19,130 bases of DNA from Spirochaetales bacterium UBA4629 (GTDB taxonomy: Bacteria; Spirochaetota; Spirochaetia; Sphaerochaetales; Sphaerochaetaceae), in contig DHMZ01000026.1 in NCBI GenBank assembly GCA_002406055.1, positions 1 through 19,130 of the forward strand. The letters run 5' to 3'. The notes below the pieces were generated by a model, which saw only the letters and a program-made list of their open reading frames with translations, did not search any database and was not told the origin of the DNA. A program made the translations under genes and the position numbers. This document shows, piece after piece, positions 1-19,130 of the stretch (the first letter of the stretch is position 1; each line of letters starts with the position of its first letter).

Positions 1-19
1 AATTCAATTACCGAGTAGT

Positions 20-695: not shown

Positions 696-724
696 TTCAA
701 AAAAAGAGTTTTCTTATTTATAAT
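696..724 (+). promoter_or_regulatory. Putative sigma-70-type promoter for the 733-6123 gene string (possible leaderless start)
   Basis: Perfect TATAAT at 719-724. TTCAAA at 696-701 gives a 17-nt spacer. Only 8 nt separate the -10 box from the ATG at 733, and no Shine-Dalgarno lies between them. Confidence 0.4.
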
Positions 725-732
725 TTAATGAA

Positions 733-2314: not shown

Positions 2315-2315
2315 A

Positions 2316-3146: not shown

Positions 3147-3156
3147 GAGGTGTTAG

Positions 3157-3669
3157 GTGCAAGCTATTTTACATTGTGATAAAGAATGGGGAATTGGAAA
3201 AAAGAATGATTTGATGTTCCATCTTCCTCTAGATATGGCCTATTTTAGAAAAAATACGCTAAAAAAAGTTGTCGTAATGGGGTCCAATACACTTCTTTCT
3301 TTTCCTAATGGTAAGCCACTTAAAAACAGAACAAACATTGTTCTTTGGCCAAATGGCGACAAAGAAAGGGCAAAAAAGGATGGCTTTATTATGGTAGAAA
3401 GCCTTCCTGAACTATTTGAAGAATTAAAAAAGTACAATAGTGATGACATCTACATAATAGGCGGGGCAATGATGTATAAAACTATGCTTCCATATTGCTC
3501 TCGTGCGCTTATTACAAAGGTTGATGCTCTAGGTGGAGCAGAGGTCTTTTTTGAGAATCTTGATAAGAAAGAGAATTGGCACCTTGAGAATTGTAGCGAT
3601 AGCGTAATTGATAATGGCTTTTCAATTAAGTTTTGTACCTACGTCAATTCTGCACCTTTATCACTATGA
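3157..3669 (+). CDS. folA: Dihydrofolate reductase
   Basis: GTG start 10 nt after the thyA stop, preceded by GAGAGG. DHFR blocks present: WGIGKKNDLMFHLPLDMAYFRKNT, VVMGSNT, LKNRTNIVL and IYIIGGAMMY. Confidence 0.9.
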   Translation: MQAILHCDKEWGIGKKNDLMFHLPLDMAYFRKNTLKKVVVMGSNTLLSFPNGKPLKNRTNIVLWPNGDKERAKKDGFIMVESLPELFEELKKYNSDDIYIIGGAMMYKTMLPYCSRALITKVDALGGAEVFFENLDKKENWHLENCSDSVIDNGFSIKFCTYVNSAPLSL

Positions 3670-5045: not shown

Positions 5046-5064
5046 CAATAAAGGAGATATGGTT

Positions 5065-6123
5065 ATGGAAAGACAAGATAAAGACCTTGCTTTTATGCTT
5101 CAATATGAAAATGTTGCATGGTATGAGAATGGACACGTTAGAGTTTTAGATAGAAGAGTATATCCTGCTAAGATTGAATGGGTGATTTGTAATAGTGTTG
5201 AAGATGTTGCACTTGCAATAAAGAATATGGTAACTCAATCAACGGGGCCATATACTCTTGCTCCTATGGGGATGGCCCTTGCTGCCTACATTGCTAGAGA
5301 TAAGAGCGAAAAAGACTTTATCGAGTATTTAGAGTGGGCATCTCGAACTATTAGCACATCTCGTCCAACAACAACACGAAGAATGCAAAAGCTAACTGAC
5401 GGATGCATTTCTGTTGCTATTGCTGCTTTGAGAGAGGGTAGAAGAGCAGATGAAGCCATAAAAGAACATGTAATAGAGTCTAATAATCTCAGATATGAGA
5501 GGGTAGGCAGAATTGCTAAGTATCTAGTTGATAAAATCCCACAGGGCGGAACTGTTATGACTCAGTGTTACGCAGAGACAATACTTGGCATGATGCTAAA
5601 AGAATGCAAAAAGCGTAATAACCCTATTAAGCTATTTTGTCCTGAAACAAGACCATATTTCCAAGGTGCTCGCTTTACAAGCACAGTTTGTTATCAGATG
5701 GGTTTTGATGTGACGCTAATAACAGATAATATGCCTGCATTTGTTATGAAGAATGAAAAGGTTGATCTCTTTACATGTGCTGCTGATGCTATTAGTTGCG
5801 ATGGCTATGTCTTTAATAAAGTAGGAACAAGTCAAATTGCAATATGTGCCGCCTATTTCCATATTCCTGTATATGTTACAGGTGCACCAGATAAAGCTCA
5901 TAAAACATATGATACAGTTACAATTGAGATGCGAGATCCATCTTTCTCTTTGCAAGCAATGGGTGTGAAAACAACAGTAGATGGCGTCAAAGGCTACTAT
6001 CCAGCCTTCGATATGACACCACCCGAGCTAATTACCGGCATTGTTACTAATAAAGGTATTTTTAAGCCAGAAAGAGTATCTGAATACTTTACCGATGAAA
6101 GCGACGAGGAATTAACTGTTTAA
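5065..6123 (+). CDS. eIF-2B alpha/beta/delta family protein, divergent MtnA-like (methylthioribose-1-phosphate isomerase-like) sugar-phosphate isomerase
   Basis: Family blocks: VRVLDRRVYP, CPETRPYFQGARFT, DVTLITDNM, AADAIS..DGYVFNKVGTSQIAICA and PVYVTGAP. The AAGGAG Shine-Dalgarno at 5051-5056 fits ATG 5065 (8-nt spacing) better than ATG 5059 (2-nt spacing). Confidence 0.7.
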   Translation: MERQDKDLAFMLQYENVAWYENGHVRVLDRRVYPAKIEWVICNSVEDVALAIKNMVTQSTGPYTLAPMGMALAAYIARDKSEKDFIEYLEWASRTISTSRPTTTRRMQKLTDGCISVAIAALREGRRADEAIKEHVIESNNLRYERVGRIAKYLVDKIPQGGTVMTQCYAETILGMMLKECKKRNNPIKLFCPETRPYFQGARFTSTVCYQMGFDVTLITDNMPAFVMKNEKVDLFTCAADAISCDGYVFNKVGTSQIAICAAYFHIPVYVTGAPDKAHKTYDTVTIEMRDPSFSLQAMGVKTTVDGVKGYYPAFDMTPPELITGIVTNKGIFKPERVSEYFTDESDEELTV

Positions 6124-7490
6124 TCCCTCGTTTCGCTAGCTCCTTCTCTAAGGGCCTCTTCTTCTATGTAGTTCCATTCTCCTTTTCTGTAGAAGATAAC
6201 AGATAGAATGGTTCCAATAATCCAACCAATAGGCCAACTTAGCCATATACCTGTGCTTTGAAGTGCTGTACGAGATAGTAAGAAGGCAATAACTACTCTC
6301 AGAATTAAATCTGTAAATGTTGAAATCATGAAGTATTTCATGAGACCGGCACCTTTGAGAGTGCCATCTGAGACCATCTTTATACAGACAATAACATAGA
6401 AAGGGGCAACTATTCTTAAGAATTCTCTTCCTGTTTTTAAGGCCTCAAGTGATGGATTATCCATAAAGAGAGTTAAAAGCTGGTTAGATAAAAGGACATA
6501 TAAAATGATGAAAGGGATTGAGATGATTTCAACCATCTTGACACCTGCTTTCCAACCATCTGAGATTCTCTTGAGCTTCTGAGCTCCAAGGTTTTGTGCT
6601 GTGTAGTTAGATATTCCATTACCAATTGTAGTAAATGATGTAATAACTAGGTTATTTAGTTTAACTGCTGCAGCGTAGCCGGCAACAACAGAAGATCCAA
6701 AGCCATTAATAATTGACTGAAGGATAATGTTTCCGACTGAAATGAAGCTCTGTTGCATTGTGCTAGGGACAGCGACCGATAAAAATTGTTTAAAGAGTGA
6801 AGGTACAAAAAACTGTGGCTTCTCTTCTACTTTTATTGTTTTAAGTCTTTTAAATACAACTACAAGAGCTAAAATAGCGCTTATTCCCTGGCATATAAAT
6901 GTTGCCCATGCAACGCCATCAACGCCCATATGGAGCTGTGTAACAAATAGAATATCCATAAAAATATTAGCTGTAGATGAGAACGCTAGGAAAATAAATG
7001 GTGTCTTGGAATCTCCTAGAGCGGAGAATATTCCTGTTGCAAGGTTATATAAAAACAAGAACGGAAGACCATAAACATAGATGTCTAGATAGAGCGCAGA
7101 ATCTGCAAGGATGTTACTAGGTGTATTAATTAGTCTCAATAGTCCATCCATTGAGATAAGACCAATGGTCATCAAAATAACACAAGTAGCTATGGTTGAT
7201 ACTATGGATGTATTAATTGCGCTCTTAAGCTTAGTGTATTCTTTTGCACCAAAGAGACGAGATGCTAAGACAGAACATCCCATATTGCATCCAAAGGCGA
7301 AGGCTATGAAGATTAATGTGATTTCATAACTATTTCCAACTGCAGCAAGTGCATCTTCTGAAATAAATTTTCCAGCTACAAAGCTATCTGCAATGTTATA
7401 TAGCTGTTGAAAGACAATTGATAGAAATAGAGGAAGGCAAAACTCAAATATTACTTTTTGTGGCTTTCCAACGGTAAGATCTTTATTCAT
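6120..7490 (-). CDS. MATE-family efflux transporter (second copy, convergent)
   Basis: Multi-pass hydrophobic protein with a MATE N-terminal block (FEFCLPLFLSIVFQQLYNIADSFVAGKF). I prefer the ATG at 7490 (MNKDLTVGK), which has GGAG 6 nt upstream on the minus strand. The tracked ATG at 7517 has no Shine-Dalgarno. The stop shares the TTAA at 6120-6123 with the convergent plus-strand gene. Confidence 0.85.
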   Translation of the reverse strand: MNKDLTVGKPQKVIFEFCLPLFLSIVFQQLYNIADSFVAGKFISEDALAAVGNSYEITLIFIAFAFGCNMGCSVLASRLFGAKEYTKLKSAINTSIVSTIATCVILMTIGLISMDGLLRLINTPSNILADSALYLDIYVYGLPFLFLYNLATGIFSALGDSKTPFIFLAFSSTANIFMDILFVTQLHMGVDGVAWATFICQGISAILALVVVFKRLKTIKVEEKPQFFVPSLFKQFLSVAVPSTMQQSFISVGNIILQSIINGFGSSVVAGYAAAVKLNNLVITSFTTIGNGISNYTAQNLGAQKLKRISDGWKAGVKMVEIISIPFIILYVLLSNQLLTLFMDNPSLEALKTGREFLRIVAPFYVIVCIKMVSDGTLKGAGLMKYFMISTFTDLILRVVIAFLLSRTALQSTGIWLSWPIGWIIGTILSVIFYRKGEWNYIEEEALREGASETRD

Positions 7491-7543
7491 TTTTTGCTCC
7501 AAAGAGATAATAGACATAAATAGACGGAAGTTTCTAGTAGCTC

Positions 7544-7575
7544 AAAAAATAAAGGCCACAGTTTTCTGTAGCCTT
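7544..7575 (-). terminator. Rho-independent terminator of the amino-acid ABC operon
   Basis: On the minus strand this reads AAGGCUACAG-AAAA-CUGUGGCCUU, a 10-11 bp stem whose one odd pair is a G-U wobble on this strand only. UAUUUUUU follows it. The hairpin starts 12 nt after the substrate-binding-protein stop. Confidence 0.8.
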
Positions 7576-7587
7576 ACTGATTATCAT

Positions 7588-8388
7588 TTATTCTTTGGTG
7601 ATATCAACACCGAAGTATTTAATTGAGAGTTCAGTTAAAACACCTTCGTTCCTCAATTCTTCTAAGGCCTTATTTATTGCCTCAAGAAGTGTTTTGGAAT
7701 CATCACCTTTTCTTACAGGGATTGCAACACTTGTCTTATCTTTGTCTAAGCATGCAATTTTGAATGGCGCATCTGGGTGTTCTTTCATGTAGTCATAATA
7801 AGTAACTTCTGCGTTTAGCGTTGCATCGATTCTTCCTGTGGCAAGAAGCTCAAATGTCTGAATCAAGTCATCTACACCTGTAACATTAGCTCCATATTTT
7901 TCTGCAACTTCCGCATATGTACTAGATATTGTATTGGCAGTTTTCTTTCCTTTTAGATCTTCCATCGAGGAAATTGAATTATTATCAGATTTAGTTATAA
8001 CGGCAGTTTTGTTATATGCGTAAGGAGTTGAGAAATTGTATTTCTCTGCTCTTTCAGGGGTAATGTCAACGCCGTTAATCATAACATCATATCTTCCTGC
8101 ATCGAGCCCAGCAAGAAGCCCATCCCATTCTCCTTCAATAAATTGAGCGCTTACTCCAATTTTTTGTGCAATGGCTTGGCCAATTTCTGTATCAAAACCT
8201 ACAAGGTTATTATTCTCATCATGATAAGTCCAAGGTGCCCATGTGCCTTCCATTGCGATTGTGATCGAGCCTTTGGCCTTAATACGCTCTAGCTGATCTC
8301 CACTTACAGCTGTCTCTTTGTTTCCACCTGCCATTATAGAATTAGCAAGTAGAATTGCAATTAGTGAAATTGTAATAAATTTCTTCAT
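7588..8388 (-). CDS. Polar amino acid ABC transporter substrate-binding protein (TcyA/FliY-like; cystine is a guess)
   Basis: Signal peptide MKKFITISLIAILLANSIMA. Family-3 SBP blocks: AMEGTWAPWTY, VGFDTEIGQAIAQKIGV, EWDGLLAGLDAGRYDVMINGV and ERAEKYNFSTPY. AGGAGA Shine-Dalgarno upstream. Confidence 0.85.
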   Translation of the reverse strand: MKKFITISLIAILLANSIMAGGNKETAVSGDQLERIKAKGSITIAMEGTWAPWTYHDENNNLVGFDTEIGQAIAQKIGVSAQFIEGEWDGLLAGLDAGRYDVMINGVDITPERAEKYNFSTPYAYNKTAVITKSDNNSISSMEDLKGKKTANTISSTYAEVAEKYGANVTGVDDLIQTFELLATGRIDATLNAEVTYYDYMKEHPDAPFKIACLDKDKTSVAIPVRKGDDSKTLLEAINKALEELRNEGVLTELSIKYFGVDITKE

Positions 8389-8399
8389 GCTTTTTCTCC

Positions 8400-9149
8400 T
8401 TATTCTATTTTTGAGAGTTCCATTCTTGTAATGAACTCTTTAGTTCTACTATTTTTAGGGTTAGTGAAGAATTCTTCAGTCTTATCTTCTTCAACAATGA
8501 CACCGCCTTCCATGAATACAATCTTGTTAGCAACTCCACGGGCAAAGCTCATCTCATGAGTAACAACAACCATCGTCATTCCTTCTTCTCCTAGTTTTTT
8601 CATAACAGATAAAACTTCTGAAGTAAGCTCTGGATCCAAGGCTGAAGTTGGTTCGTCAAAGTATATTAAGAGTGGTTCTGTTGCAAGAGCTCTAGCAATG
8701 GCAACACGTTGTTGCTGTCCTCCAGATAATTGCGAAGGGTAGTAAGAGGCTCTATCTAGCATACCTACTTTCTCTAGATACTTTTCACTTCTTTTTCTTG
8801 CCTCTTCTTTATTCATTTTTCTTGCAACAATGAGGCCTTCCATAACATTTTCTATAGCTGTTTTGTTGCTAAACAGGTTATAGTTTTGAAAAACAAAACC
8901 TGTCTTAAGTCTTATTTCTTTAATCTCTTTTTTAGTTATGGTTTTGGTGTCATATTCCTTTCCATCAAAGATTATTTTGCCATCATCTGCCTTTTCTAAG
9001 AAATTAAGACAACGCAAAAAAGTTGTTTTACCACTACCAGATGGTCCAAGGATTGCTATTACGTCACCTTTATTTACTGATAGAGAAATTCCTTTTAATA
9101 CTTCTAAAGAACCAAAGCTCTTCTTAATGTTTTCAACTTGTAAAATCAT
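8400..9149 (-). CDS. Polar amino acid ABC transporter ATP-binding protein
   Basis: Walker [11 protein letters not shown]-loop, ABC signature [15 protein letters not shown], Walker [13 protein letters not shown] and H-loop VVVTHEM. The start overlaps the permease stop (ATGA on the minus strand). Confidence 0.95.
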
Positions 9150-9814
9150 CAGTAGCCTCTCTTCTTAAACTGCTTTTCTCCCCAAGACTGAACCTTAGTA
9201 AGAATAGTACAAATTAGTAGGTAAATAAAACCAACTTCTAGGTAGAGAACAAGAGGCTCATATGTTCTAGCAACGATGCGCTGTGTCTGCATAAACATCT
9301 CAGTAACTGTGATATTTGCGGCAAGAGAGGTATCTTTTACCATACTTATAAGTGAGTTGAAGAGAGTCGGAAATGCAATTCGTAGAGCTTGAGGAAGAAC
9401 GATTCTTTTCATGGTTTGTAACCAACTCATTCCCACACATTCTCCGGCTTCTAGTTGTCCCTTTGGAACAGCTTCTATGGCTGCTCTGATTGTTTCAGAG
9501 GAGTATGCTCCTTCGTTAATCGAGAAGACTAAAACAGCTGCAGGAAAAGGATCAATTAGTATGCCAATAGATGGAAAACCAAAAAAGACGACAAAGAGTT
9601 GAACTAAGAGAGGAGTACCTCTAATTATCCAAATGTAAAAACGGCAAATGTTTTTTAATACTGGGATTTTTGCAACTTGTATAAGTGCAACGACAGTTGC
9701 AATAACAAGAGCAAAGGAAAAAGAGAGAAGAGTAAGTGGTATTGTTCTCTCAAGTCCAGGTTTCAATATCTTCCAAAATGAATCTATGACAAGATTCAGT
9801 ATTCGCTCGTTCAC
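9149..9814 (-). CDS. Polar amino acid ABC transporter permease (HisM/HisQ-type)
   Basis: Five or so hydrophobic segments and an EAA-type loop ([30 protein letters not shown]). GTG start preceded by AGGGAGAG. Confidence 0.9.
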
Positions 9815-9837
9815 TTTTCTCTCCCTATACTAAAAGC

Positions 9838-9866
9838 AAAATAATTAATCAATAGCCAAGTGTCAA
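9838..9866 (-). promoter_or_regulatory. Putative promoter of the ABC importer operon
   Basis: On the minus strand: perfect TTGACA (rc of 9861-9866), a 17-nt spacer, then TATTTT (rc of 9838-9843). This lies about 25 nt upstream of the permease GTG. Confidence 0.4.
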
Positions 9867-9962
9867 TGATATACCTAGAATAGAGAAGAGACATTTTTAA
9901 GTATGAAAACAATTTCATATTTGTTATTTTTTCGTAAAGATTTCTTTATTAAAATTTTTTTA

Positions 9963-9991
9963 TTGACGCATTAGCAAAAAATGTGTTAAAA
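9963..9991 (+). promoter_or_regulatory. Putative promoter driving the T-box leader
   Basis: TTGACG at 9963-9968 preceded by a T-rich UP-like run. A weak -10 (TTAAAA at 9986-9991, or TGtGTTAAA as an extended -10) follows after 16-17 nt. The position is right for a leader starting near 10000. Confidence 0.35.
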
Positions 9992-10010
9992 AACCAACAA
10001 TTAAAAAAAG

Positions 10011-10284
10011 CTACGACGAAGACGGAAAAGGAAGATAGCTAGAGCGAGCTGGGTACGGTGTGAGCCAGTAGTGAAGGGCCTTTAAACCTATCACTTCAGA
10101 GCTGGAGGACAGAAAACAGAGATGTAAGTAGAGGCCTCTCGTGATTGCTGCGTTAATGCATACGGCTTGATGGAGCCTGAGTGGCGTAGAAATACGCAAT
10201 TTGAGTGGTACCGCGGGTATAGTATCAAAAAATAGATATAACTCGTCTCAAAGGATTAATAGTCTTTTGGGGCGAGTTTTTTTT
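10011..10284 (+). promoter_or_regulatory. T-box riboswitch leader (tRNA-sensing transcription attenuator); specifier most likely AUC (Ile)
   Basis: - T-box sequence AATTTGAGTGGTACCGCG at 10198-10215 (consensus AAnnnGGGTGGTACCGCG).
- Stem I AG-bulge AGAGCGA (10041-10047) with the distal stem-loop GCTGG-GTACGGTGTGAG-CCAGT, followed by TAGTGAA.
- F-box-like GCGTTA at 10150-10155.
- Stem III GCGTA-GAAA-TACGC (10184-10197) immediately 5' of the T-box.
- Antiterminator helix TTTGAG (10200-10205) pairs with CTCAAA (10247-10252), which is also the 5' arm of the terminator.
- The UGGU bulge can pair with a tRNA ACCA end. Confidence 0.85.
10242..10284 (+). terminator. T-box expression-platform intrinsic terminator
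   Basis: CTCGTCTCAAAGG (10242-10254) pairs with CTTTTGGGGCGAG (10264-10276). The stem is 13 bp including 3 G-U pairs, with a 9-nt loop, followed by T8 (10277-10284). It lies 19 nt upstream of the GTG at 10303. Confidence 0.85.
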
Positions 10285-10302
10285 ATTTGGAGGATTTGAG
10301 AA

Positions 10303-12573
10303 GTGGAAGCGAGAAGCTACAGTGATCAACTTAGAGATGTTGCATCTAGAATCAAAGGCATGAGAGAGATTATGGCTCTTTCGGAGAGCGAGATGGCAAA
10401 GAAGACCGAGGTTAGTCTTTCTGACTACAAAAATTATGAAAGTGGAAGCGTTGATTTACCTTTCTCTTTCATTCATAAGTGTGCTTTAGTCTTCTCGATA
10501 GATATTACCGATCTTCTAGAAGGTGAATCTACGACATTAACTTCTTATACTGTAACAAGAAAAGGTCAGGGTGTTCAGACAGCAAAGGAAGAAGGTATCG
10601 ACATTTTTAATCTTGCACCAAAGTTTAAAGATAAGCTAGCCGAGCCGTATTGGGTACGATATGAATACTCTGAGGAACTACAATCTAGACCAATACAGCT
10701 AAGCAAACACTCTGGACAAGAGTTTGACCTTGTTCTTTCAGGTTCTCTTTTAGTTCAAGTTGGTGAGAATAAAGAAGTTCTTCATGAGGGTGATAGCATT
10801 TACTATAACTCTTCAACTCCACACGGCATGATTGCTGTTGAAGGAAAAGATTGTGTTTTCTGTGCTGTTGTACTTTCAGGGGAAGAAAATAAGGGGGATG
10901 AGGTAATAATAGACTCTATTGTACCTCGTCCAGATAAAAAGCCTCTTCTTATAGAAAAGTTTGTTAAATGCAGTGAAGATAAAGAGGGACATTTAACAGG
11001 CGTTGAGTTTAAGAATACAGATGCATTTAACTTTGGTTTTGATGTCGTTGATGCAATAAGCGAGCATTATCCAAATAAGACAGCTCTTGTTTACTTGGAC
11101 AGAAATAGAAATGAGAGAAGATTTACGTTTGAAGAAATAAAAAAAGAGTCGAATAGATGTGCCAACTATCTTCTCAGCTTAGGTGTAAAAAAGGGTGATA
11201 AAGTTATGCTCGTCTTAAAGCGGCATTGGGAATTTTGGATTACCATCGTTGCACTTCATAAAATAGGAGCGGTTGCTATTCCTGCAACTTACCTCTTAAG
11301 AGAGCATGACTATATTTATCGCTTTAATGCAGCTAGTGTCTCAGCTGTAATTTCTACAGCTACAGGAGACTCTGCTAGCATGATTGATTCTGTTTTATCG
11401 GAGTGTCCAACTGTAAAGACAAAGATTATCGTACAAGGAGAAAAAGAAGGTTGGCACAATTTTGATAAAGAGTATCCTCTCTTTAAGAGTTCATTTAAAA
11501 GAACTAGCTCTTCTCCAAGTGGAGAAGAAAGTGCGCTTATGTTTTTCTCTAGCGGAACAACAGGAAACCCTAAGATGGTTGAGCATAAGCATACCTATGC
11601 TCTTGGACACTTTATTACAGCACGCTATTGGCATTGCTGTGAACCTGATGGCCTACACTTTACTATATCTGATACAGGTTGGGGAAAGTCACTTTGGGGT
11701 AAGTTATATGGACAATGGATGTGTGAAGGCGCTGTTTTTGTCTATGATTTTGACCGTTTTGATGCCCATGACTTATTGCCACTCTTTGCCAAATATAAGA
11801 TAACAACCTTCTGTGCTCCTCCAACAATGCTAAGAATGATGATAAAAGAAGATTTAACTAAATATGATTTCTCATCGGTAAGACATATGACAACGGCAGG
11901 CGAAGCACTAAACCCTGAAGTTGCAATACAGTTTGCAAAGGCAACAGGCTTGGAGATTATGGAAGGCTTTGGACAGACAGAAACAACACTTACTATTGCT
12001 AATTTTAGAGGTACAAAGGTAAAGATGGGAAGCATGGGAAAACCTAGCCCTGAGTACGATGTACACATCCTCACTCCAGATGGTGAAGAGTGTCTTCCTG
12101 GTGAAACTGGTGAAATTGCTATCTCTCTTAAAAATGGCAATCCTATTGGGCTCTTTACTGAATATTATCGTGATGAAGAAAAGACAAAGGAAGCTATACA
12201 TGATGGCTACTATCATACAGGCGATACTGCTTGGAAGGATGAAGATGGCTATTTCTTCTATGTAGGAAGAACAGATGACATTATTAAATCTTCTGGCTAT
12301 CGTATTGGACCATTTGAAGTTGAGTCTGTAATCATGGAGCTTCCATATGTTCTAGAGTGTGGTGTCTCTGCATCACCTGATCCTATCAGAGGTCAAATTG
12401 TTAAGGCATCGATTGTTCTTACAAAGGGCACTGAACCAACGGAAGAACTAAAGAAAGAAATTCAGAACTACGTAAAAGAACATACAGCTCCATATAAATA
12501 CCCTCGATTAATTGTCTTCAAAGATGAACTGCCAAAGACAATTAGTGGAAAGATAAAGAGGAATGCACTATGA
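10303..12573 (+). CDS. Fusion protein: XRE-family HTH + cupin sensor module (PuuR-like architecture) fused to an AMP-forming medium/short-chain acyl-CoA synthetase
   Basis: One uninterrupted 756-aa ORF with a GTG start 9 nt after GGAGG (10289-10293).
- Residues about 10-72: HTH_3-like (LSESEMAKKTEVSLSDYKNYESG).
- Residues about 105-192: cupin-like (HSGQEFDLVLSG...EGDSIYYNSSTPHGM).
- Residues about 236-756: adenylate-forming enzyme with FFSSGTTGNPKM (nt 11542-11577), EGFGQTETT, YHTGDTAW, GRTDDIIKSSGYRIGPFEVES and PKTISGKIKR. Confidence 0.85.
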   Translation: MEARSYSDQLRDVASRIKGMREIMALSESEMAKKTEVSLSDYKNYESGSVDLPFSFIHKCALVFSIDITDLLEGESTTLTSYTVTRKGQGVQTAKEEGIDIFNLAPKFKDKLAEPYWVRYEYSEELQSRPIQLSKHSGQEFDLVLSGSLLVQVGENKEVLHEGDSIYYNSSTPHGMIAVEGKDCVFCAVVLSGEENKGDEVIIDSIVPRPDKKPLLIEKFVKCSEDKEGHLTGVEFKNTDAFNFGFDVVDAISEHYPNKTALVYLDRNRNERRFTFEEIKKESNRCANYLLSLGVKKGDKVMLVLKRHWEFWITIVALHKIGAVAIPATYLLREHDYIYRFNAASVSAVISTATGDSASMIDSVLSECPTVKTKIIVQGEKEGWHNFDKEYPLFKSSFKRTSSSPSGEESALMFFSSGTTGNPKMVEHKHTYALGHFITARYWHCCEPDGLHFTISDTGWGKSLWGKLYGQWMCEGAVFVYDFDRFDAHDLLPLFAKYKITTFCAPPTMLRMMIKEDLTKYDFSSVRHMTTAGEALNPEVAIQFAKATGLEIMEGFGQTETTLTIANFRGTKVKMGSMGKPSPEYDVHILTPDGEECLPGETGEIAISLKNGNPIGLFTEYYRDEEKTKEAIHDGYYHTGDTAWKDEDGYFFYVGRTDDIIKSSGYRIGPFEVESVIMELPYVLECGVSASPDPIRGQIVKASIVLTKGTEPTEELKKEIQNYVKEHTAPYKYPRLIVFKDELPKTISGKIKRNAL

Positions 12574-13367
12574 CAAAAAGAATGAAGGTTGCTTCCATTC
12601 AGATGGATGTAAAATTTGGTCAAAAAAGAGAGAACTATGAAAAAGCTCTTGTACTGCTAGAAGAAGCAAAGAAAAGAGGCTCTGATGTAGCACTTTTACC
12701 TGAGCTATGGGACTTGGGATTTTTTCCTGAAAACAATCTCTCTCAAATGGCAGATTTAGAAGGATTCGAAACAAAGGCTTTCTTGTCATCTTGTGCAAGA
12801 AAACTCGATATGAATATTGTTGGAGGCTCTGTTGTAAATAAAAGAGGTAAAGGACTCTACAACAGTTGTTTTGTCTTTGATAGAAGTGGTCATCTTCAAG
12901 CTGAATATGACAAGACACATCTTTTTTCACCTCTTAATGAAGATAAGTTCTTCACTCCAGGGGATCATCTATCAACATTTATGTTTGATGGAGTTAAGTG
13001 TGGCGTTATTCTTTGCTATGATTTGCGTTTTCCTGAGCTCTCTCGTCGCCTTAGTTTAGATGGGGTCGAGATGCTTTTTGTTAGTGCATCTTGGCCACTA
13101 GAGAGAAAAGGACATCTACTTACACTTTCAAGAGCGAGAGCTATTGAAAACGAAATATATCTTGTTCTCTCTTCATCTGCAGGGAAGAGAGAAGATATAG
13201 ATTTCTGTGGCTGTTCTTCGATTTTTTCTCCGACAGGAGAGCTACTAGCAACACAGGATAACCAGGAAGAAGGGATAGTTGAAGCTTGTTTTGATGAAAA
13301 AGAAGTGTATTTAGCTCGAACAAATCTTCCTGTTTTTAAAGATAGAAAACCGAATTTGTACAAATAG
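12570..13367 (+). CDS. Carbon-nitrogen hydrolase, Nit/omega-amidase (YafV/MtnU-like) branch of the nitrilase superfamily
   Basis: A Glu-Lys-Cys triad is visible in LLPELWD, YDKTHLF and ILCYDLRFPE. The size (265 aa) is typical. The ATG overlaps the upstream stop (ATGA at 12570-12573). Confidence 0.8.
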   Translation: MTKRMKVASIQMDVKFGQKRENYEKALVLLEEAKKRGSDVALLPELWDLGFFPENNLSQMADLEGFETKAFLSSCARKLDMNIVGGSVVNKRGKGLYNSCFVFDRSGHLQAEYDKTHLFSPLNEDKFFTPGDHLSTFMFDGVKCGVILCYDLRFPELSRRLSLDGVEMLFVSASWPLERKGHLLTLSRARAIENEIYLVLSSSAGKREDIDFCGCSSIFSPTGELLATQDNQEEGIVEACFDEKEVYLARTNLPVFKDRKPNLYK

Positions 13368-13381
13368 ATGAGGAGGAAAGT

Positions 13382-14473
13382 ATGAGTTTCGACATTAGAG
13401 TTGAAAGAACAAAAGAACCAAAGGAAAAGCCAGATGAGAATCATCTTGGGTTTGCTAAGTATTTTACAGATCACATGTTTTGTGCTGATTGGACAGAAGA
13501 CGAGGGATGGCATGATTTTAGAGTTGTTCCTCATAAGCCAATATTAATTGAGCCTGCATCCTGTGTCTTACATTATGCACAAATGATGTTTGAGGGAATG
13601 AAAGCATATAGAGCACCAGATGGAGATGTCCTTCTCTTTAGACCAGATATGAACGAAAAGAGAATGGAAAAAACATGTGAGAGAATGTGTATTCCTATGC
13701 TACCTAAAGGTCTTCTTGTTGAGGCAATTAGAAGCTTAATTCAGACAGATGAGTCATGGGTTCCATCAAAAGAAGGAACAGCTCTTTACATTAGGCCTTT
13801 TATCTTTGGCGACGAAGTTTCTTTCTCAGTTCTTCCTGCAAAGCACTATCGCTTTATGATTATTCTTACTCCAACAGGTTCTTATTATGCTGCTAATGAT
13901 GGAGGATTATCTACAACAAGAATCTTTGTTCAAGATAAGTATATAAGAGCAGCAGAGGGCGGAACTGGATATGCAAAGGTCGGTGGTAACTATGGTGGCG
14001 CAATGAGAGCAAGTGAAGATGCTATGCGTTTTAACTGTAAAGATGTTTTATGGCTTGATGCCAAAGATCATAAATACGTTGAAGAAATAGGAACATCTAA
14101 TGCTTTCTTTGTTATAAATAATGAGGTAATAACAGCACCACTCGATAGTGGAACGATTCTTCCTGGTATTACTCGTGATAGTGTTATTCGCCTTCTCTCA
14201 TCATGGGGAATTAAGGTAAGCGAGAGAAAACTCAGTATCTATGACGTGCTCGAAGCAAGTAGAAATGGAACATTGACTGAAATATTTGCTTCAGGAACTG
14301 CTGCTGTTATTTCACCTATAGGATGCTTATGTTTTAACGGCGAAGATTACCCTGTCCAAAAGGAAAAGGTCGGACCAATTGCACAGAAACTCTACGATAC
14401 TCTCTACGGAATTCAAACGGGAAGAATAAAAGATGATATGGGTTGGTCTTATAGCTTGGGTTTAAAAAAGTGA
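13382..14473 (+). CDS. ilvE: Branched-chain amino acid aminotransferase (PLP fold type IV, long YbgE/YwaA-type)
   Basis: FTDHMF, HYAQMMFEGMKAYR, LFRPDMNEKRM, ALYIRPFIFG, GGTGYAKVGGNYG (PLP lysine region) and GITRDS. AGGAGG Shine-Dalgarno 5-6 nt upstream. Confidence 0.9.
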   Translation: MSFDIRVERTKEPKEKPDENHLGFAKYFTDHMFCADWTEDEGWHDFRVVPHKPILIEPASCVLHYAQMMFEGMKAYRAPDGDVLLFRPDMNEKRMEKTCERMCIPMLPKGLLVEAIRSLIQTDESWVPSKEGTALYIRPFIFGDEVSFSVLPAKHYRFMIILTPTGSYYAANDGGLSTTRIFVQDKYIRAAEGGTGYAKVGGNYGGAMRASEDAMRFNCKDVLWLDAKDHKYVEEIGTSNAFFVINNEVITAPLDSGTILPGITRDSVIRLLSSWGIKVSERKLSIYDVLEASRNGTLTEIFASGTAAVISPIGCLCFNGEDYPVQKEKVGPIAQKLYDTLYGIQTGRIKDDMGWSYSLGLKK

Positions 14474-15111
14474 AAAGGATAACTCTGTTTTTAGGTCACT
14501 ATGGATCTGGAAAAACTAATGTAGCTATAAACTATGCATACCATATAAATAAAAAAGGCAAAAAAGTTGTTATAGCTGATTTAGATATAGTTAATCCATA
14601 TTTTAGAACCAAAGATAGCCAAGAGGAATTAGAAGCGAAAGGAATTGAAGTTATTTCACTTCCTTTTGCGGATAGCAATGTTGATTTACCGGCTCTTCCT
14701 TCGTCTATTTATAGATTAGTAGAAGACAAATCAATTTATTCTGTAATTGATGTAGGCGGTGATGATAGAGGTAGTTATGCTCTAGGTCGTCTTGTTCCTT
14801 ACGTAAAAGAAGAAAACAACTACGATATGTTCTATGTTGTGAATTTTTATCGCCCTTTAACTCAAAATGCACTAGATGCATATGAAGTTTTGAAAGAGAT
14901 AGAAAAAGCATCGGGACTATCTTTTACTGGAATAATAAACAACTCTAATCTTGGAGCAGATACTACTAGAGACACAATAGAAAAAAGAATAGATGAGGCT
15001 GAAAAACTCTCTCGTCTTTCTAATCTTCCAATTGTTTATACAACAGTTGAAGAGGGGCTAAAAGGAAATAATGAATTTGGTCTAAAGTTACAAAGAAGGC
15101 CATTTGATTAA
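14470..15111 (+). CDS. Uncharacterised SIMIBI-class P-loop NTPase (MinD / G3E-metallochaperone-like)
   Basis: Walker A GHYGSGKT at residues 9-16. Walker-B-like hydrophobic strand plus VIDVGGDD. A later IINNSNLG resembles an NKxD-type specificity strand. No Cys/His metal motif, HTH or membrane segment. The GTG start overlaps the ilvE stop (GTGA). Confidence 0.6.
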   Translation: MKRITLFLGHYGSGKTNVAINYAYHINKKGKKVVIADLDIVNPYFRTKDSQEELEAKGIEVISLPFADSNVDLPALPSSIYRLVEDKSIYSVIDVGGDDRGSYALGRLVPYVKEENNYDMFYVVNFYRPLTQNALDAYEVLKEIEKASGLSFTGIINNSNLGADTTRDTIEKRIDEAEKLSRLSNLPIVYTTVEEGLKGNNEFGLKLQRRPFD

Positions 15112-15124
15112 AAAGGAAATTGTT

Positions 15125-15331
15125 ATGGCAAAGATTACTTTTGAAATAGACAAATGTAAGGGATGTGGACTCTGTGTAGAAGCTTGTCCTAAGTCTCTTC
15201 TTTTTCTTGATAAAAGCAAAATGAATAAGAAGGGACATAATTATGTTCAAATAAAAGATATGTCTAAGTGCGTAGGTTGTGGCTTCTGCTTCGCTATGTG
15301 CCCAGACTCAATAATTACGGTGGAAAAATAA
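15125..15331 (+). CDS. 2-oxoacid:ferredoxin oxidoreductase delta subunit (2x[4Fe-4S] ferredoxin)
   Basis: Two CxxCxxCxxxCP motifs (CKGCGLCVEACP and CVGCGFCFAMCP). I place the start at ATG 15125 (MAKITFE), with AAGGA 7 nt upstream, rather than the tracked 15104. Confidence 0.85.
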   Translation: MAKITFEIDKCKGCGLCVEACPKSLLFLDKSKMNKKGHNYVQIKDMSKCVGCGFCFAMCPDSIITVEK

Positions 15332-15332
15332 T

Positions 15333-16397
15333 ATGAGTGAAAAGGTATTAATGAAGGGCAATGAGGCCATTGCTGAGGCAGCTTTAAGAGCTGGATGCAG
15401 ACATTACTTTGGTTATCCAATTACCCCACAGACGGAAATTGCAGCATATATGGCAAAGAGAATGCCTAAAATAGGCGGAGTTTTCCTTCAAGCAGAAAGT
15501 GAAATTAGTGCAATAAATATGGTCTATGGAGTCTCATCTACTGGTAAGAGAGTTATGACAAGTTCCTCAAGCCCAGGAGTCTCTCTTAAAATGGAGGGAA
15601 TTTCATATCTTGCTGGTTCAGATTTACCTGCTGTAATTGTAAATGTACAACGAGGAGGTCCGGGTCTTGGAGGTATTCAGCCTAGCCAATCTGATTATTT
15701 TCAAGCAACAAAAGGTGGTGGACACGGTGACTATCACATGATTGTACTTACGCCTGCGTCTGTTCAAGAAATGGCCTCTCTTACAATGTTAGCTTTTGAT
15801 TTAGCAGATAAATATCGTACTCCGGTTATGATTTTAGCTGACGGCACTATTGGACAAATGATGGAAAGTGTTGTTCTTCCTGATGAGGTCAAAGAGAAAA
15901 AATATGAAAAACCTTGGGCTTTAACAGGAACAAAAATGATGAGGGAGCACAATATTGTCAACTCTCTCTATCTCTCTCCTGAAAAGTTGGAAGAGACGAA
16001 TATAGAGCGTTTTGAACGTTACAGGAAAATTGAGGAAAACGAAGTTAGAGTTGAGAGTTATATGATGGATGATGCATCTTATGCTCTTGTTGCTTTTGGT
16101 ATTGCTTCTCGTGTTGCCAAGGCGTCTGTTAACGAACTGAGAGCTCTTGGTGTTAAATGTGGTCTTATTCGACCTCTTACAGTATGGCCATTTCCTTCAA
16201 AAGTAATAAATGAAGCATCTTATAGAGTTGAAGCATTCATTTCTGTAGAGCTTTCTATGGGACAAATGATTGAGGATATTCGTCTTGCTGAGGAGTGCAG
16301 AAAGCCAGTCTATTTGTGTCAACGAGCTGGTGGAATTATTCCATCCACCTCGCAAATTGTTGAGAAGGTTCTCTCTATACAAAAAGGAGGTAAGTAA
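15333..16397 (+). CDS. 2-oxoacid:ferredoxin oxidoreductase alpha subunit (Kor/Vor-type; substrate not assignable from sequence alone)
   Basis: Typical N-terminus (MKGNEAIAEAALRAGCRHYFGYPITPQTEI) and VNVQRGGPGLG. It sits between the delta and beta subunits and starts 1 nt after the delta stop. Confidence 0.85.
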   Translation: MSEKVLMKGNEAIAEAALRAGCRHYFGYPITPQTEIAAYMAKRMPKIGGVFLQAESEISAINMVYGVSSTGKRVMTSSSSPGVSLKMEGISYLAGSDLPAVIVNVQRGGPGLGGIQPSQSDYFQATKGGGHGDYHMIVLTPASVQEMASLTMLAFDLADKYRTPVMILADGTIGQMMESVVLPDEVKEKKYEKPWALTGTKMMREHNIVNSLYLSPEKLEETNIERFERYRKIEENEVRVESYMMDDASYALVAFGIASRVAKASVNELRALGVKCGLIRPLTVWPFPSKVINEASYRVEAFISVELSMGQMIEDIRLAEECRKPVYLCQRAGGIIPSTSQIVEKVLSIQKGGK

Positions 16398-17149
16398 TGG
16401 CCATGCTATTTCAAAAACCAAAGAGCTTAACAGAGAAAGAGCTTCATTATTGCCCAGGTTGTTCTCATGGTATAATTCATCGCTTAGTTGCAGAAGCTAT
16501 TGATAGCCTTGGTATTGAAGGTAGAACAATAGGTGTTGCGCCTGTTGGCTGTGCTGTTATGGCATATGATTATTTTGCTTGCGATATGATAGAAGCTGCC
16601 CATGGAAGAGCACCTGCTGTTGCTACAGGTATAAAAAGATCTCTTCCTGAGAACATTGTTTTTACCTATCAGGGGGATGGAGATCTTGCTTCTATTGGTA
16701 TGGCTGAGACAGTTCATGCAGCAACAAGGAATGAAAATATTACAATCATATTTGTTAATAATGCTATCTATGGAATGACAGGAGGGCAAATGGCCCCAAC
16801 CTCTCTTCCTGGACAGGTTACACAAACCTCTCCTTATGGTAGGGATGTCTTTCGAGAAGGCTATCCAATAAAGGTATGTGAGCTCTTATCTAGCTTAGAT
16901 GGCCCATACTACATTTCACGTGTTGCTGTTAATAACGTAAAGAATGTTCTTAGTGCAAAGAAACACATAGAGAGAGCATTTCGAAATCAGGTTGAAAATA
17001 AAGGTTTTTCTCTTGTTGAAGTAGTTTCTGCATGTCCAACCAATTGGGGTTTGACTCCACAAAAGGCTTTAGAGTGGGTTGATGAAAAGATGATTCCTTA
17101 TTACCCACTTGGAGTTTTTAGAGATAAAGATGAGAAGGAGAGAGTATGA
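16397..17149 (+). CDS. 2-oxoacid:ferredoxin oxidoreductase beta subunit (thiamine-diphosphate-binding)
   Basis: CPGCSHG Fe-S/TPP-subunit N-terminus. TPP motif GDGDLASIGMAE...NNAIYGMTGGQ. The start overlaps the alpha stop (TAATG). Confidence 0.9.
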   Translation: MAMLFQKPKSLTEKELHYCPGCSHGIIHRLVAEAIDSLGIEGRTIGVAPVGCAVMAYDYFACDMIEAAHGRAPAVATGIKRSLPENIVFTYQGDGDLASIGMAETVHAATRNENITIIFVNNAIYGMTGGQMAPTSLPGQVTQTSPYGRDVFREGYPIKVCELLSSLDGPYYISRVAVNNVKNVLSAKKHIERAFRNQVENKGFSLVEVVSACPTNWGLTPQKALEWVDEKMIPYYPLGVFRDKDEKERV

Positions 17150-17676
17150 CTACTAAATTGATTATTGCTGGTTTTGGTGGCCAAGGAATCCTTTTCTTTG
17201 GTAAGTTACTTTCATATAAAGCATTGTTTGAAAATAAAGAGGTTAGTTGGCTTCCGTCCTATGGCCCAGAAATGAGGGGAGGAACAGCAACATGTTCTGT
17301 GACAATAAGTTCTTCCTTAATTGGTTCTCCAATTATTGATGAACCAGACATTCTAGTTGCAATGAATCTACCTTCTCTTGATAAGTTTGAGAGCAAAGTA
17401 AAGAGTGGAGGTAAGATTTTTGTCGACTCTACTATGGTAGAACGTAAAATAAAACGAAGTGATGTTGAGGCCTTTTATATTCCTTCTTCAGCGCTTTCTC
17501 AAGAGATGGGGAATGTGGCACTTAGCAATATTGTGCTACTTGGAAAGGTCTTAAAAGAATGCCCTGAACTTGGCAGAAACAAAATTGAGGAAGCTATTAA
17601 AAAAGTTGTCAGTGCCAGGCATCAGGATATGTATGAAATAAATTTGGAAGCTATAAATAGAGGCTTCAATTATTAA
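17146..17676 (+). CDS. 2-oxoacid:ferredoxin oxidoreductase gamma subunit
   Basis: IIAGFGGQGILFFGKLL followed by SYGPEMRGG, typical of OFOR gamma domains. The ATG overlaps the beta stop (ATGA). Confidence 0.85.
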   Translation: MTTKLIIAGFGGQGILFFGKLLSYKALFENKEVSWLPSYGPEMRGGTATCSVTISSSLIGSPIIDEPDILVAMNLPSLDKFESKVKSGGKIFVDSTMVERKIKRSDVEAFYIPSSALSQEMGNVALSNIVLLGKVLKECPELGRNKIEEAIKKVVSARHQDMYEINLEAINRGFNY

Positions 17677-19130
17677 AGGGAATCGTATAGATTTTCGTAT
17701 CTACGAGAGGAATTGGACCAAGACCAATCTTCTTCCATTCCTCTCTTCATAATCTTTCTCCATTCGTCTTTTTTCTCGTAATAGAGCCAAAGTGCATGGT
17801 TTATTCTATCCATTAAAACTTGAGGATTAAAATCGAAGAAAGAAAAACCAGTTCCTGTTGAAGTGTATTGGTTATAAGGCTTTACTGTATCTTTTAAGCC
17901 TCCTGTTTCGTGAACAATTGGAATGGCGCCATACTTTAATCCTATTAGTTGTGTCAGGCCACAAGGTTCGAAAGCAGATGGAATAAGAAGGCTATCTACA
18001 GCACCATATATTTTGTGAGATAAACCTTCTGAGAATTCTATTTTTGCTCTGACTTTATCTCTATATTTGGATTCATAGTACCTGAACATATTCTCATAGC
18101 AACTATCCCCAGTTCCTAGAACAATTAAGTTTATTTTATTAGCACAAAGCCTATCCATAATAGGATCGAGCAAATCTATACCTTTTTGGTTTGTTAGGCG
18201 AGATACAATGGCAATTGTAAAAACATCTTTATCTTCTTTTAATCCCAATTCCTTTTGAAGTTCTACTTTGTTTTTTTCTCTCTCTTTGACAAAGGACGAA
18301 GAAGAATAATTATGAGGAAGAAGCATATCTTTTTCGGGGTTCCACACTCCATAGTCTAGACCATTGACAATTCCAAGTAGACGGTCTCTTCTCCATGAGA
18401 GAATATCTTCTAGTCCCTCTCCATAGCTATGTGTTTGTATTTCATTAGCATATGAAGAAGAGACGGTAGTTATCCAATCAGAAAAGACAAGGCCTCCACG
18501 TAGCATCGTCGCATTCCATTCGTCTTGTGGATAAGAGGTATCTTGAAATGGTGATACAAGAAGGCCTGGCACAAATAGCTCATTTGGTAATCCTGTTACC
18601 CACCTCAGGTGTCCAACATTCCAACAGCCTTGGAACCTGAGATTATGGATTGTCATTATTGTTTTAATTCCATGAAAAAAACTATCACCTTGGAAAATTG
18701 TATTTAGATATACTGGAACAAGTGAAGTCTGCCAATCATGAGCGTGGATAATATCTGGCTTGAAGCCAAGAAGAGGAAGGGCGGAGAGTATTGCTTTTGA
18801 AAAGTACGCAAAGCGCTCTAAGTCAGAAAAAAGATCAAAGTAAGGTTTGGCCCCAGAGAAGTATTTCTTATTATCGACAAAATAATATGTTATACCATCA
18901 AACTTTAGAGTGTTAATGCCAACATAGATTCTGTTGTCCATTTGGAAGTAAACAAGGTTTTTTAAATCCTTTTTATACTTTTCATCCATGCATTCATATT
19001 GTGGCAAGATTACTCTTACATCATACTTTTTCTTGTCTAAAGCTTTAGGTAGACTACCAACTACGTCTGCGAGTCCTCCTGTTTTTACAAAAGGTACACA
19101 CTCTGAAGAAGCAAATAATATTTTTTTCAT
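17673..19130 (-). CDS. glgA: Glycogen synthase (ADP-glucose-type, GT5)
   Basis: N-terminal MKKILFASSECVPFVKTGGLADVVGSLPKAL (KTGGL motif). HDWQT, IHNLRFQG, VSRLTNQKG and PSAFEPCGLTQL are also present. The ATG occupies the last three bases of the window, so upstream signals are not visible. Confidence 0.95.
   Translation of the reverse strand: MKKILFASSECVPFVKTGGLADVVGSLPKALDKKKYDVRVILPQYECMDEKYKKDLKNLVYFQMDNRIYVGINTLKFDGITYYFVDNKKYFSGAKPYFDLFSDLERFAYFSKAILSALPLLGFKPDIIHAHDWQTSLVPVYLNTIFQGDSFFHGIKTIMTIHNLRFQGCWNVGHLRWVTGLPNELFVPGLLVSPFQDTSYPQDEWNATMLRGGLVFSDWITTVSSSYANEIQTHSYGEGLEDILSWRRDRLLGIVNGLDYGVWNPEKDMLLPHNYSSSSFVKEREKNKVELQKELGLKEDKDVFTIAIVSRLTNQKGIDLLDPIMDRLCANKINLIVLGTGDSCYENMFRYYESKYRDKVRAKIEFSEGLSHKIYGAVDSLLIPSAFEPCGLTQLIGLKYGAIPIVHETGGLKDTVKPYNQYTSTGTGFSFFDFNPQVLMDRINHALWLYYEKKDEWRKIMKRGMEEDWSWSNSSRRYENLYDSL

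Follow-up and report, generated by a model that had tools for sequence, protein, structure and literature searches.

The fusion gene, its leader and its operon

We analysed a DNA stretch of 19,130 nucleotides from Spirochaetales bacterium UBA4629 (Sphaerochaetaceae; assembly GCA_002406055.1, contig DHMZ01000026.1, positions 1 to 19,130), hereafter called the window. One of its genes encodes an acyl-CoA synthetase that carries at its N-terminus an XRE-like helix-turn-helix (HTH) domain and a cupin, together called the HTH-cupin module. This fusion is the first gene of a tightly packed unit of nine genes, with overlaps or gaps of no more than 14 nt between them, and is preceded by a promoter and a T-box leader (Table 1). 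No convincing terminator was found within the operon. As the initial annotation of this DNA had described, the open reading frame (ORF) runs uninterrupted over its 756 codons, and its translation has no methionine at residues 193-235, between module and ligase. The GGAGG motif lies 9 nt from the GTG start, and alignments of orthologues begin at residue 1 or at residues 7-9.

The architecture proposed in that annotation, an HTH and a cupin joined to a complete ligase, was recovered by a Pfam search with four matches: HTH_19 (residues 15-75; E 4.5e-6; its 26.9 bits narrowly miss the gathering score of 30.2), Cupin_2 (134-189, 44.5 bits), AMP-binding (253-608, 229.5 bits) and AMP-binding_C (672-750, 75.5 bits). 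Homologues match HTH_3, HTH_19 and HTH_31. The junction has the highest column entropy (1.88), and its residues 198-223 have predicted local distance difference test (pLDDT) values below 50 in the AlphaFold2 model. Compared with split-gene junctions, it corresponds to the tail of a free-standing cupin protein followed by the N-terminal leader of a free-standing ligase. The fusion is one real polypeptide of two modules and a disordered linker.

A census of this architecture found it in at least 120 protein clusters (755-756 aa, 78-100% identity). Full-length relatives with 65-97% identity were present in at least 586 species genomes, one genome being scanned per species. The hosts are mostly gut and rumen Clostridia (Oscillospiraceae, Acutalibacteraceae, Ruminococcaceae and Ca. 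Faeciplasma), plus Sphaerochaetaceae, and the nearest relative, a 97% identical protein, is from a metagenome-assembled genome (MAG) of Candidatus Ornithospirochaeta. The fusions form three clades. Besides the window type, there is a second HTH-cupin-ligase paralogue, encoded in tandem in about half of the related Clostridia loci, and an abundant third clade of 766 aa, in which one cluster has 1874 members. The databases already hold the architecture, labelled only “AMP-binding protein” or “XRE family transcriptional regulator”, and we found no description of it in the searchable literature. A divergent fusion of 758 aa (P0164) keeps the HTH and cupin and has degenerate ligase motifs: FLQSYSYGMAKP replaces SSGTTGxPK, and PKDANGVVIRS lacks the catalytic lysine. 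It is possibly a pseudo-ligase.

The ligase module of the window is a complete AMP-forming synthetase of the short/medium branched-chain type. AMP-binding and AMP-binding_C are both matched, the catalytic lysine is present, and the translation reads intact core motifs (SSGTTGNPK, GFGQTET, YHTGD, GRTDDIIKSSGYRIG and PKTISGKIKR). The best NCBIfam family is MbcS, the 2-methylbutyryl-CoA synthetase of Staphylococcus aureus, at 457 bits, below the equivalog cut-off of 850. The ligase shares 52% identity over 514 residues (E 9.5e-186) with MacsMa of Methanosarcina acetivorans (PDB 3ETC), an enzyme that prefers 2-methylbutyrate (PMC10455477).

The T-box mentioned in the initial annotation was found as a full-length match to the Rfam model. 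The score is below the Rfam gathering score of 93, so that a default Rfam scan returns nothing and the E-value mode is required to see it. In the covariance-model alignment the specifier codon is AUC (Ile) at 10090-10092, followed by an A at 10093. The core UGGUACCGCG lies at 10206-10215, and its UGGU implies A as the discriminator base. The terminator overlaps the 3' strand of the antiterminator, and the two structures are mutually exclusive. The promoter is preceded by an A/T-tract stretch resembling an UP element. In about 105 related loci the same layout, TTGACA, about 17 nt, TGnTAnAAT, immediately precedes the T-box.

We aligned 119 T-boxes preceding fusion genes. The Ile specifier (AUC/ATC) is invariant in the 70 orthologous leaders of the window type, against variable flanking bases. 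The tandem paralogue is served by a separate promoter and a separate T-box, whose specifier is GUA or occasionally the synonymous GUC (Val), as cmscan confirmed on locus L021 (L021:12308-14917; the related loci carry L numbers). We call these genes Ile-type and Val-type, respectively. About 40 other loci have the Val type, e.g., L013, L017 and L048. This implies a putative isobutyrate-to-valine enzyme beside the 2-methylbutyrate-to-isoleucine one. We saw no Leu-type copy among the related loci. AUC is also read, by cmscan, in the T-box of the third clade (L087) and in ten loci where module and ligase are separate genes. Judged by its specifiers, the family answers to tRNA-Ile, with a Val-specific offshoot. 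In the window, the T-box would turn transcription on when tRNA-Ile is uncharged.

The T-boxes of fused genes score 73.7-86.5 bits (the window; L021:9705-9947 and 12308-12562; L087:7681-7919), the relatives of the window reaching 83.5-86.5, whereas those of split loci score 89.7-110.6 bits and mostly pass the gathering score. Hence, default annotation misses the fused subgroup. Within the Sphaerochaetaceae we found this T-box in the window and in MAGs of Ca. Ornithospirochaeta/Sphaerochaetaceae (L001-L008). To our knowledge, T-boxes are not typical of the spirochaete phylum. The window operon is 70-76% identical to the versions of Oscillospiraceae, which suggests that operon and leader were acquired together by horizontal transfer. 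Several loci have further T-boxes elsewhere, with GGGUGGUACCGCG cores (e.g., L013:13709, L033:4250).

Table 1. Features of the operon and of its leader, in positions of the window.
Feature	Positions	Strand	Basis or details
Probable sigma-70 promoter	9963-9992	+	-35 TTGACG (9963-9968), extended -10 TGtTAAAAA (9984-9992)
T-box leader (RF00230)	10004-10253	+	cmscan 73.7 bits, E 5.6e-16, model positions 1-219
Intrinsic terminator of the T-box	10240-10288	+	18-bp hairpin (10240-10278) plus T-run; minimum free energy -87.4 kcal/mol, z = -3.35
Ribosome-binding site and start codon	10289-10305	+	GGAGG (10289-10293), GTG (10303); sequence reading
HTH-cupin-ligase fusion ORF	10303-12573	+	756 codons, GTG start
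XRE-like five-helix domain (residues 6-73)	10318-10521	+	Pfam HTH_19; AlphaFold2 pLDDT 96-98
Cupin beta-barrel (residues 91-191)	10573-10875	+	Cupin_2; AlphaFold2 pLDDT 95-98
Inter-module junction (residues 192-235)	10876-11007	+	Variable, predicted disordered; linker of about 45 residues
AMP-forming short/medium branched-chain acyl-CoA synthetase module	11008-12573	+	Pfam, NCBIfam, identity to MacsMa
CN-hydrolase (nitrilase/omega-amidase superfamily)	12570-13367	+	Pfam PF00795, 168.6 bits
Branched-chain amino acid aminotransferase (IlvE type II)	13382-14473	+	NCBIfam NF009897, 439.7 bits (cut-off 307)
CbiA/MinD-like P-loop protein	14470-15111	+	Pfam CbiA, 26.9 bits; synteny
2x[4Fe-4S] ferredoxin, VorD-like delta subunit	15104-15331	+	75 aa
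VorB	15333-16397	+	NCBIfam NF005507, 547.5 bits (cut-off 399)
TPP-binding beta subunit of 2-oxoacid:ferredoxin oxidoreductase	16397-17149	+	
Gamma subunit of 2-oxoacid:ferredoxin oxidoreductase, 2-oxoisovalerate type	17146-17676	+	

Behind the fusion, the operon encodes a branched-chain amino acid aminotransferase (BCAT) and the subunits of a 2-oxoacid:ferredoxin oxidoreductase of the 2-oxoisovalerate type (VOR), in which Pfam matches POR_N, PFOR_II, TPP_enzyme_C and POR (15333-17676). The synteny of fusion, P-loop protein, ferredoxin, VorBAC and BCAT holds in about 60 loci, and is kept in nearly all related loci of sufficient length. These contents fit a reductive carboxylation of 2-methylbutyrate to isoleucine. 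The ligase would spend ATP to convert 2-methylbutyrate to 2-methylbutyryl-CoA, the VOR complex would reductively carboxylate the acyl-CoA to 2-keto-3-methylvalerate, and BCAT would transaminate the latter to isoleucine. The substrate and the biosynthetic direction are what we infer from the gene contents, and on the Ile specifier and the preference of MacsMa the ligase most likely activates 2-methylbutyrate to 2-methylbutyryl-CoA. The opposite, catabolic direction (Ile to 2-methylbutyrate) was rejected, because a T-box responds to Ile starvation by induction and AMP-forming ligases work in the direction of acyl-CoA.

The start of the CN-hydrolase gene overlaps the stop codon of the ligase, the gene occurs in only a subset of the related loci, and the protein passes no NCBIfam cut-off; it may act alongside the transaminase, as an omega-amidase or a repair amidase. 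The P-loop protein has no NCBIfam match. Its gene always lies 5' of ferredoxin and VorBAC, in fused and split loci and across phyla (e.g., L083:2754-3533; L085:4101-4772), and it may encode a maturation or accessory factor for VOR.

Properties of the HTH-cupin module

The module also exists as a free-standing protein. The closest free-standing homologues share 33-50% identity with it over its whole length, and their genes lie immediately upstream of ligases of the same subfamily, themselves 52-57% identical to the fused ligase domain. When metagenomes were scanned with a profile of the free-standing HTH-cupin proteins, the ligase was directly downstream on the same strand in 70 of the 72 informative loci (97%), 65 of them split and five fused. 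The pairing is therefore near-obligatory in genomes, and the functional tie between module and ligase assumed in the initial annotation stands. Stop and start codons overlap (ATGA, TGATG) in 26 of the 59 distinct split loci, and 12 more have the two genes within 20 nt. The split pair was found in archaea (Methanomassiliicoccaceae), Actinobacteria (Eggerthellaceae) and Firmicutes (e.g., Oscillospiraceae), and many of the Firmicutes pairs are also behind an Ile T-box.

Some loci depart from these arrangements. In split loci of the Eggerthellaceae type, the HTH-cupin gene ends in a conserved ...ATTATCTAGGCG, and the ligase frame is open upstream of that stop (L083:5534-5600; L108, L110, L111, L116, L121, L123, L126, L136, L137, L140-L142). 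The ligase is called there at 632 aa, with a 52-nt overlap with the HTH-cupin gene. Recoding, a wrongly called start or a fusion that split recently could explain this. The third fusion clade (L087:7681-11854) likewise has an Ile T-box but no Vor cluster nearby, and an ACT plus metallo-beta-lactamase-fold gene follows. Near it lie a DAHP synthase and a PaaK-like ligase beside a small ACT-domain protein; this ligase and the small amino-acid-binding protein may form a pair comparable to the HTH-cupin protein and its ligase. Some split loci have incidental neighbours just 3' of the ligase, namely a bacterial large signal recognition particle RNA and a tRNA gene (L152:6360-6625; L094:6481-6553).

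We took a census of module residues in 80 window-type, 38 Val-type and 120 third-clade fusions and in 177 free-standing homologues. The DNA-facing positions of helix 3 (residues 39-47), i.e., 39, 40, 41 and 44, are Asp or Glu in 37-57% of cases, Lys or Arg in 0-9% and Gln, Asn, Ser, Thr or His in 4-17%, in all five clades. The consensus of this reading head is S-[V/E/L]-E-E-Y-x-x-[Y/L/C]-E-x-G-E. The mean net charge of helices 2-3 ranges from -3.6 to -4.6 in the five groups and is 0 in the XRE-cupin regulators PuuR and SutR, both of them proven to bind DNA, whose reading heads are GLTHSAISTIEQ and GVSKAMLGQIER (E. coli K-12 record). In all five clades, no element of the module varies more than the putative recognition helix. 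Column entropy in the window clade is 1.6-1.8 for helices 2-3, as opposed to 0.5-0.7 for helices 4-5 and 0.8 for the cupin, the most conserved parts. Helices 4-5 (residues 54-73) are nearly invariant. On this pattern the helical domain is not vestigial but under strong purifying selection, which bears on helices 4-5 rather than the reading head. The resemblance to PuuR pointed out in the initial annotation holds at the level of architecture only: BLASTP aligns PuuR to the module over just 50 residues of the cupin (28% identity).

The cupin has three family-invariant residues, H136, E140 and H174, in a 2-His-1-carboxylate pattern (His-x3-Glu...His). They align with H138, E142 and H180, the iron ligands of HppE. 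Further invariant polar residues are K111, E114, Q139, D164 and S170. The same His/Glu/His pattern occurs in the cupins of PuuR and SutR; the triad thus suggests a metal site and does not discriminate between an enzyme and a sensor. A comparison of Ile- and Val-type cupins for specificity-determining residues singled out F141C alone, which probably faces away from the pocket, and was thus uninformative.

A PDB search with the single N-terminal sequence gave no matches. With the profile of the free-standing family, the best sequence match was 1Y9Q, an uncharacterised “HTH_3 regulator” with a reading head equal to that of SutR, and HppE aligned over its full length (positions 8-180, E 2e-6). The AlphaFold2 model of the module has a pLDDT of 84.6, with both domains at 95-98. 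Foldseek matched both domains of this model to 1Y9Q, HppE, Psf4, HEPD and MPnS, all of them enzymes except 1Y9Q; the matches of the HppE/HEPD/MPnS type had E about 1e-13 (6.5e-14) and TM scores of 0.44-0.51.

We looked for an operator by eye in 112 promoter regions, and by k-mer and inverted-repeat enrichment against shuffles in those of 64 Ile-type and 41 Val-type genes. By none of these approaches did the 64 Ile-type and 41 Val-type regions share an operator or palindrome. Enrichment was confined to k-mers of the -35 box and to A-tract/T-tract patterns located about -40 to -60, which match an UP element. A separate strong promoter abuts the T-box of every Ile-type and every Val-type gene, and no more than tens of bases lie between the Val-type promoter and the stop codon before it. 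Nor did we find a palindrome shared among the upstream regions of the split pairs.

Three candidate operators were rejected. The window has one perfect palindrome, TATGAAAacaaTTTCATA (9902-9919), which occurs once, in the divergent intergenic region between a cystine-type ABC transporter operon (minus strand, start at 9814) and the T-box operon. None of the 167 related loci contains it, not even L001, which encodes the 97% identical protein, and 64 of 200 shuffles had at least one match. It may belong to the promoter or regulation of the divergent transporter operon. An archaeal inverted repeat, TATCTTTT-N9-AAAAGATA (L085), is not kept in other archaeal loci; the only element recurring there is a TATA-like TATCTTTTTAT. 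The Eggerthellaceae motif TGCTATACAAT resembles an extended -10 box and is not a palindrome.

The flanks of the operon (733-9814 and 17673-19130) are ordinary. They encode a metallophosphoesterase, thyA-folA, two MATE exporters, an MtnA-like isomerase of the IF-2B family, the cystine-type ABC transporter (substrate-binding protein, ATPase and permease) and a convergent glycogen-synthase-like gene. In many related loci (L002-L006, L012, L014-L022 etc.) a distant AMP-binding ligase (25-30% identity over about 340 residues) is encoded about 1-1.5 kb upstream of the fusion, and its gene often stops 60-100 nt 5' of the fusion promoter.

The role of the module

Five independent lines of evidence disfavour DNA reading: the acidic and variable helix 3, the lack of a detectable operator, the pairing with the ligase, the structural precedent of HppE-type proteins and the purely architectural likeness to PuuR. 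Hence, the module is most likely not a DNA-reading transcription factor. We favour, at slightly better than an even chance, a reading in which it is an obligate accessory or regulatory domain acting at the protein level on the 2-methylbutyrate-CoA ligase, and in which the T-box supplies the transcriptional control of the operon. The module is probably a metal-dependent ligand sensor. Its helical domain would be a structural or oligomerisation element, as in HppE, and its His-x3-Glu...His pocket would bind a metal and a small ligand of the pathway (the acid, the acyl-CoA, a 2-keto acid or the amino-acid end product). In what is the most economical scheme, ligand binding would gate or feedback-control the ATP-consuming activation of the acid, possibly in combination with oligomerisation. 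The partner would be encoded as a separate, translationally coupled gene in archaea, Eggerthellaceae and many Firmicutes, or be fused, as in the window. An allosteric or structural role is what we infer from these features. MacsMa is active alone, without an HTH-cupin module (PMC10455477), so the module would be dispensable for catalysis as such.

The initial annotation had proposed two layers of control for the operon, a tRNA charging state read by the T-box and, possibly, a ligase acting as a trigger enzyme through its DNA-binding HTH-cupin. The T-box layer is borne out; the second layer is not supported. As a trigger enzyme and autorepressor, the protein would bind an operator in the control region through its HTH, and the cupin ligand or the state of the ligase would release it. 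Together with the T-box this would make a two-input gate, in which both a need for Ile and the availability of the acid are required, a logic that makes biological sense. Several observations speak for this scheme, or more generally weigh against the accessory domain that we favour. The XRE-cupin proteins characterised outside the phosphonate enzymes are local repressors, which bind palindromes as dimers and sense a precursor metabolite of their pathway (PMC7901475). The HTH_19 match and those of the homologues to HTH_3, HTH_19 and HTH_31 count in its favour, the canonical HTH core residues R16, R21, A32, Y42 and E46 are invariant, and the best PDB sequence match, 1Y9Q, is annotated as a regulator. 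The regulator-first gene order of the split loci fits the pattern of local repressors and is kept in lineages without a T-box; since archaea and Eggerthellaceae lack one, another regulator is expected there. The heptamer TTTCATA, a half-site of the palindrome at 9902-9919, occurs somewhat more often near Ile-type promoters than expected (10 of 64 loci, versus 4.3 ± 2.2). Because reading heads vary among orthologues, operators co-varying with them in each lineage could have escaped a search for shared motifs. Finally, the structure prediction of inter-domain contacts gave confident domains within the module and an unusable arrangement of module and ligase: the full-length AlphaFold2 model has a pLDDT of 66 and a predicted TM score (pTM) of 0.52, and thus provides no reliable contact model.

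We nevertheless consider a trigger enzyme unlikely. In every clade the reading head is acidic and no other part of the module is less conserved; its charge lies far below those of PuuR and SutR. No operator is conserved among the 105 promoter regions, and Val-type promoters leave only tens of bases after the preceding stop codon. The palindrome of the window is unique to it and of a kind that 64 of 200 shuffles also produced. The strong promoter, the obligatory 1:1 stoichiometry with an abundant enzyme and the translational coupling in split loci are all atypical of a repressor. The fallback offered by the initial annotation, a cupin recruited for binding or gating beside a vestigial HTH, fits better as far as the cupin and an HTH that does not read DNA are concerned, but the strong purifying selection on the helical domain contradicts its being vestigial.

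A catalytic cupin is less probable again. The fusion would then be a bifunctional enzyme, whose cupin acts as a metalloenzyme (HppE-like, or of the isomerase, epimerase or lyase type) on the acid, the acyl-CoA or the 2-keto acid. The alignment of the invariant triad with the HppE iron ligands, the nearly exclusive occurrence of enzymes among the two-domain structural neighbours, and the additional invariant polar residues are consistent with such a role. However, the genes of the operon already cover every step from acid to amino acid, and the presence of the same triad in the regulators PuuR and SutR makes it no sign of catalysis. The hosts are strict gut and rumen anaerobes and relatives of methanogens, in which chemistry with O2 or H2O2 is unlikely. 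An epimerase role in particular was rejected, as the Val-type paralogue retains the module with an achiral substrate.

As a pure scaffold, the module would do no more than dimerise or tetramerise the ligase, or dock it to VOR, and would sense nothing; this seems to us marginally less probable than a catalytic cupin. Such a scaffold would account for helices 4-5 being the most conserved part of the helical domain and for the Vor cluster that adjoins in many loci, and HppE is itself a homotetramer of alpha and beta domains (PMC9088020). Yet a scaffold would not need the invariant metal and polar pocket of the cupin, and no Vor cluster adjoins the fusion in the third clade. An erroneous joining of two genes in sequencing or assembly, conceivable given that they also exist split with stop and start codons overlapping by 1-8 nt, has a negligible probability: the stop or frameshift that would separate them is excluded by an uninterrupted ORF in hundreds of independent assemblies, in three clades and with a conserved junction length.

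A broader proposal can be made, which we regard as tentative and on balance doubtful. According to it, the XRE-like plus cupin proteins that go with this ligase, fused or split, across archaea, Actinobacteria, Firmicutes and spirochaetes would make up a class of regulatory enzyme subunits that has so far gone unrecognised and whose fold stems from transcription factors. They would sense a pathway metabolite at a metal site and allosterically gate the ATP-consuming activation of branched-chain acids. The sensed metabolite would be, e.g., isoleucine, valine or a 2-keto acid. Such subunits would, together with the T-box, provide a fast protein-level and a slow RNA-level end-product control of a salvage-type amino-acid pathway. 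In a minority variant of this proposal, the module also binds DNA through fast-co-evolving operators, and the fusion is a true trigger enzyme.

These results have consequences for annotation. A very widespread family of “XRE family transcriptional regulators” is probably mis-annotated, its members apparently being obligate enzyme partners without the features of DNA readers. Confirmation would make this the second case, after the HppE-type enzymes, of an XRE fold reused beyond DNA binding, and would call for caution in the automatic inference of regulons from HTH annotations. The operon provides a coherent and testable set of genes (ligase, VOR and BCAT) for a poorly assigned conversion of acids to amino acids. 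Since T-box specifiers label the amino acid served, they allow predicting the substrate specificity of thousands of “AMP-binding protein” entries.

Comparison with known systems

The module resembles the XRE-cupin transcription factors (PuuR and SutR of E. coli; PauR, PsdR and ErfA of Pseudomonas) in having an XRE five-helix domain and a cupin, about 185 aa in total, and in being encoded with a neighbouring metabolic gene as a local unit. It differs from them by its fusion to, or translational coupling with, the partner enzyme. Instead of being polar or basic, its reading head is acidic and variable, and no palindromic operator was found for it. BirA, PutA and NadR also combine a metabolic or adenylate-forming enzyme with an HTH-type domain in one polypeptide. 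They have proven operators and a DNA-competent HTH, in contrast to the HTH described here, which lacks the features of a DNA reader and has no detectable operator.

The non-haem-iron phosphonate enzymes HppE, HEPD and MPnS have the same architecture of an XRE-like alpha-domain and a cupin. The alpha-domain of HppE-type enzymes has a structural role and does not bind DNA, and the “recognition helix” of HppE (TPETVAAWENGE) is acidic and non-basic, as in the module. The identity between these enzymes and the module is only 16-19%, and the partner in the window is an acyl-CoA ligase. Neither the window nor the related loci contain phosphonate genes, and the oxidative chemistry of these enzymes is implausible in strictly anaerobic hosts.

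The ligase shares with MacsMa and MbcS the intact adenylate-forming motifs, and the preference of MacsMa for 2-methylbutyrate matches the Ile T-box of the operon. Both enzymes were studied as stand-alone proteins without an HTH-cupin, unlike the fusion. The role of MbcS is in fatty-acid synthesis, whereas VOR and BCAT place the ligase of the window in a context of amino-acid synthesis.

In classical physiology, rumen anaerobes convert branched-chain volatile fatty acids to branched-chain amino acids by reductive carboxylation, and gut and rumen anaerobes need these acids or profit from them. In the searchable literature we found for this conversion no gene-level assignment, no Ile/Val T-box control, no accessory module and no operon combining a T-box with Vor genes. 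The window combines an XRE-cupin, HppE-like module with a MacsMa-type ligase, in a putative reductive-carboxylation operon with an Ile T-box. All three activities of the rumen pathway, i.e., acid activation, ferredoxin-dependent 2-oxoacid synthesis and transamination, are encoded in this operon, which is likewise found in rumen and gut MAGs.

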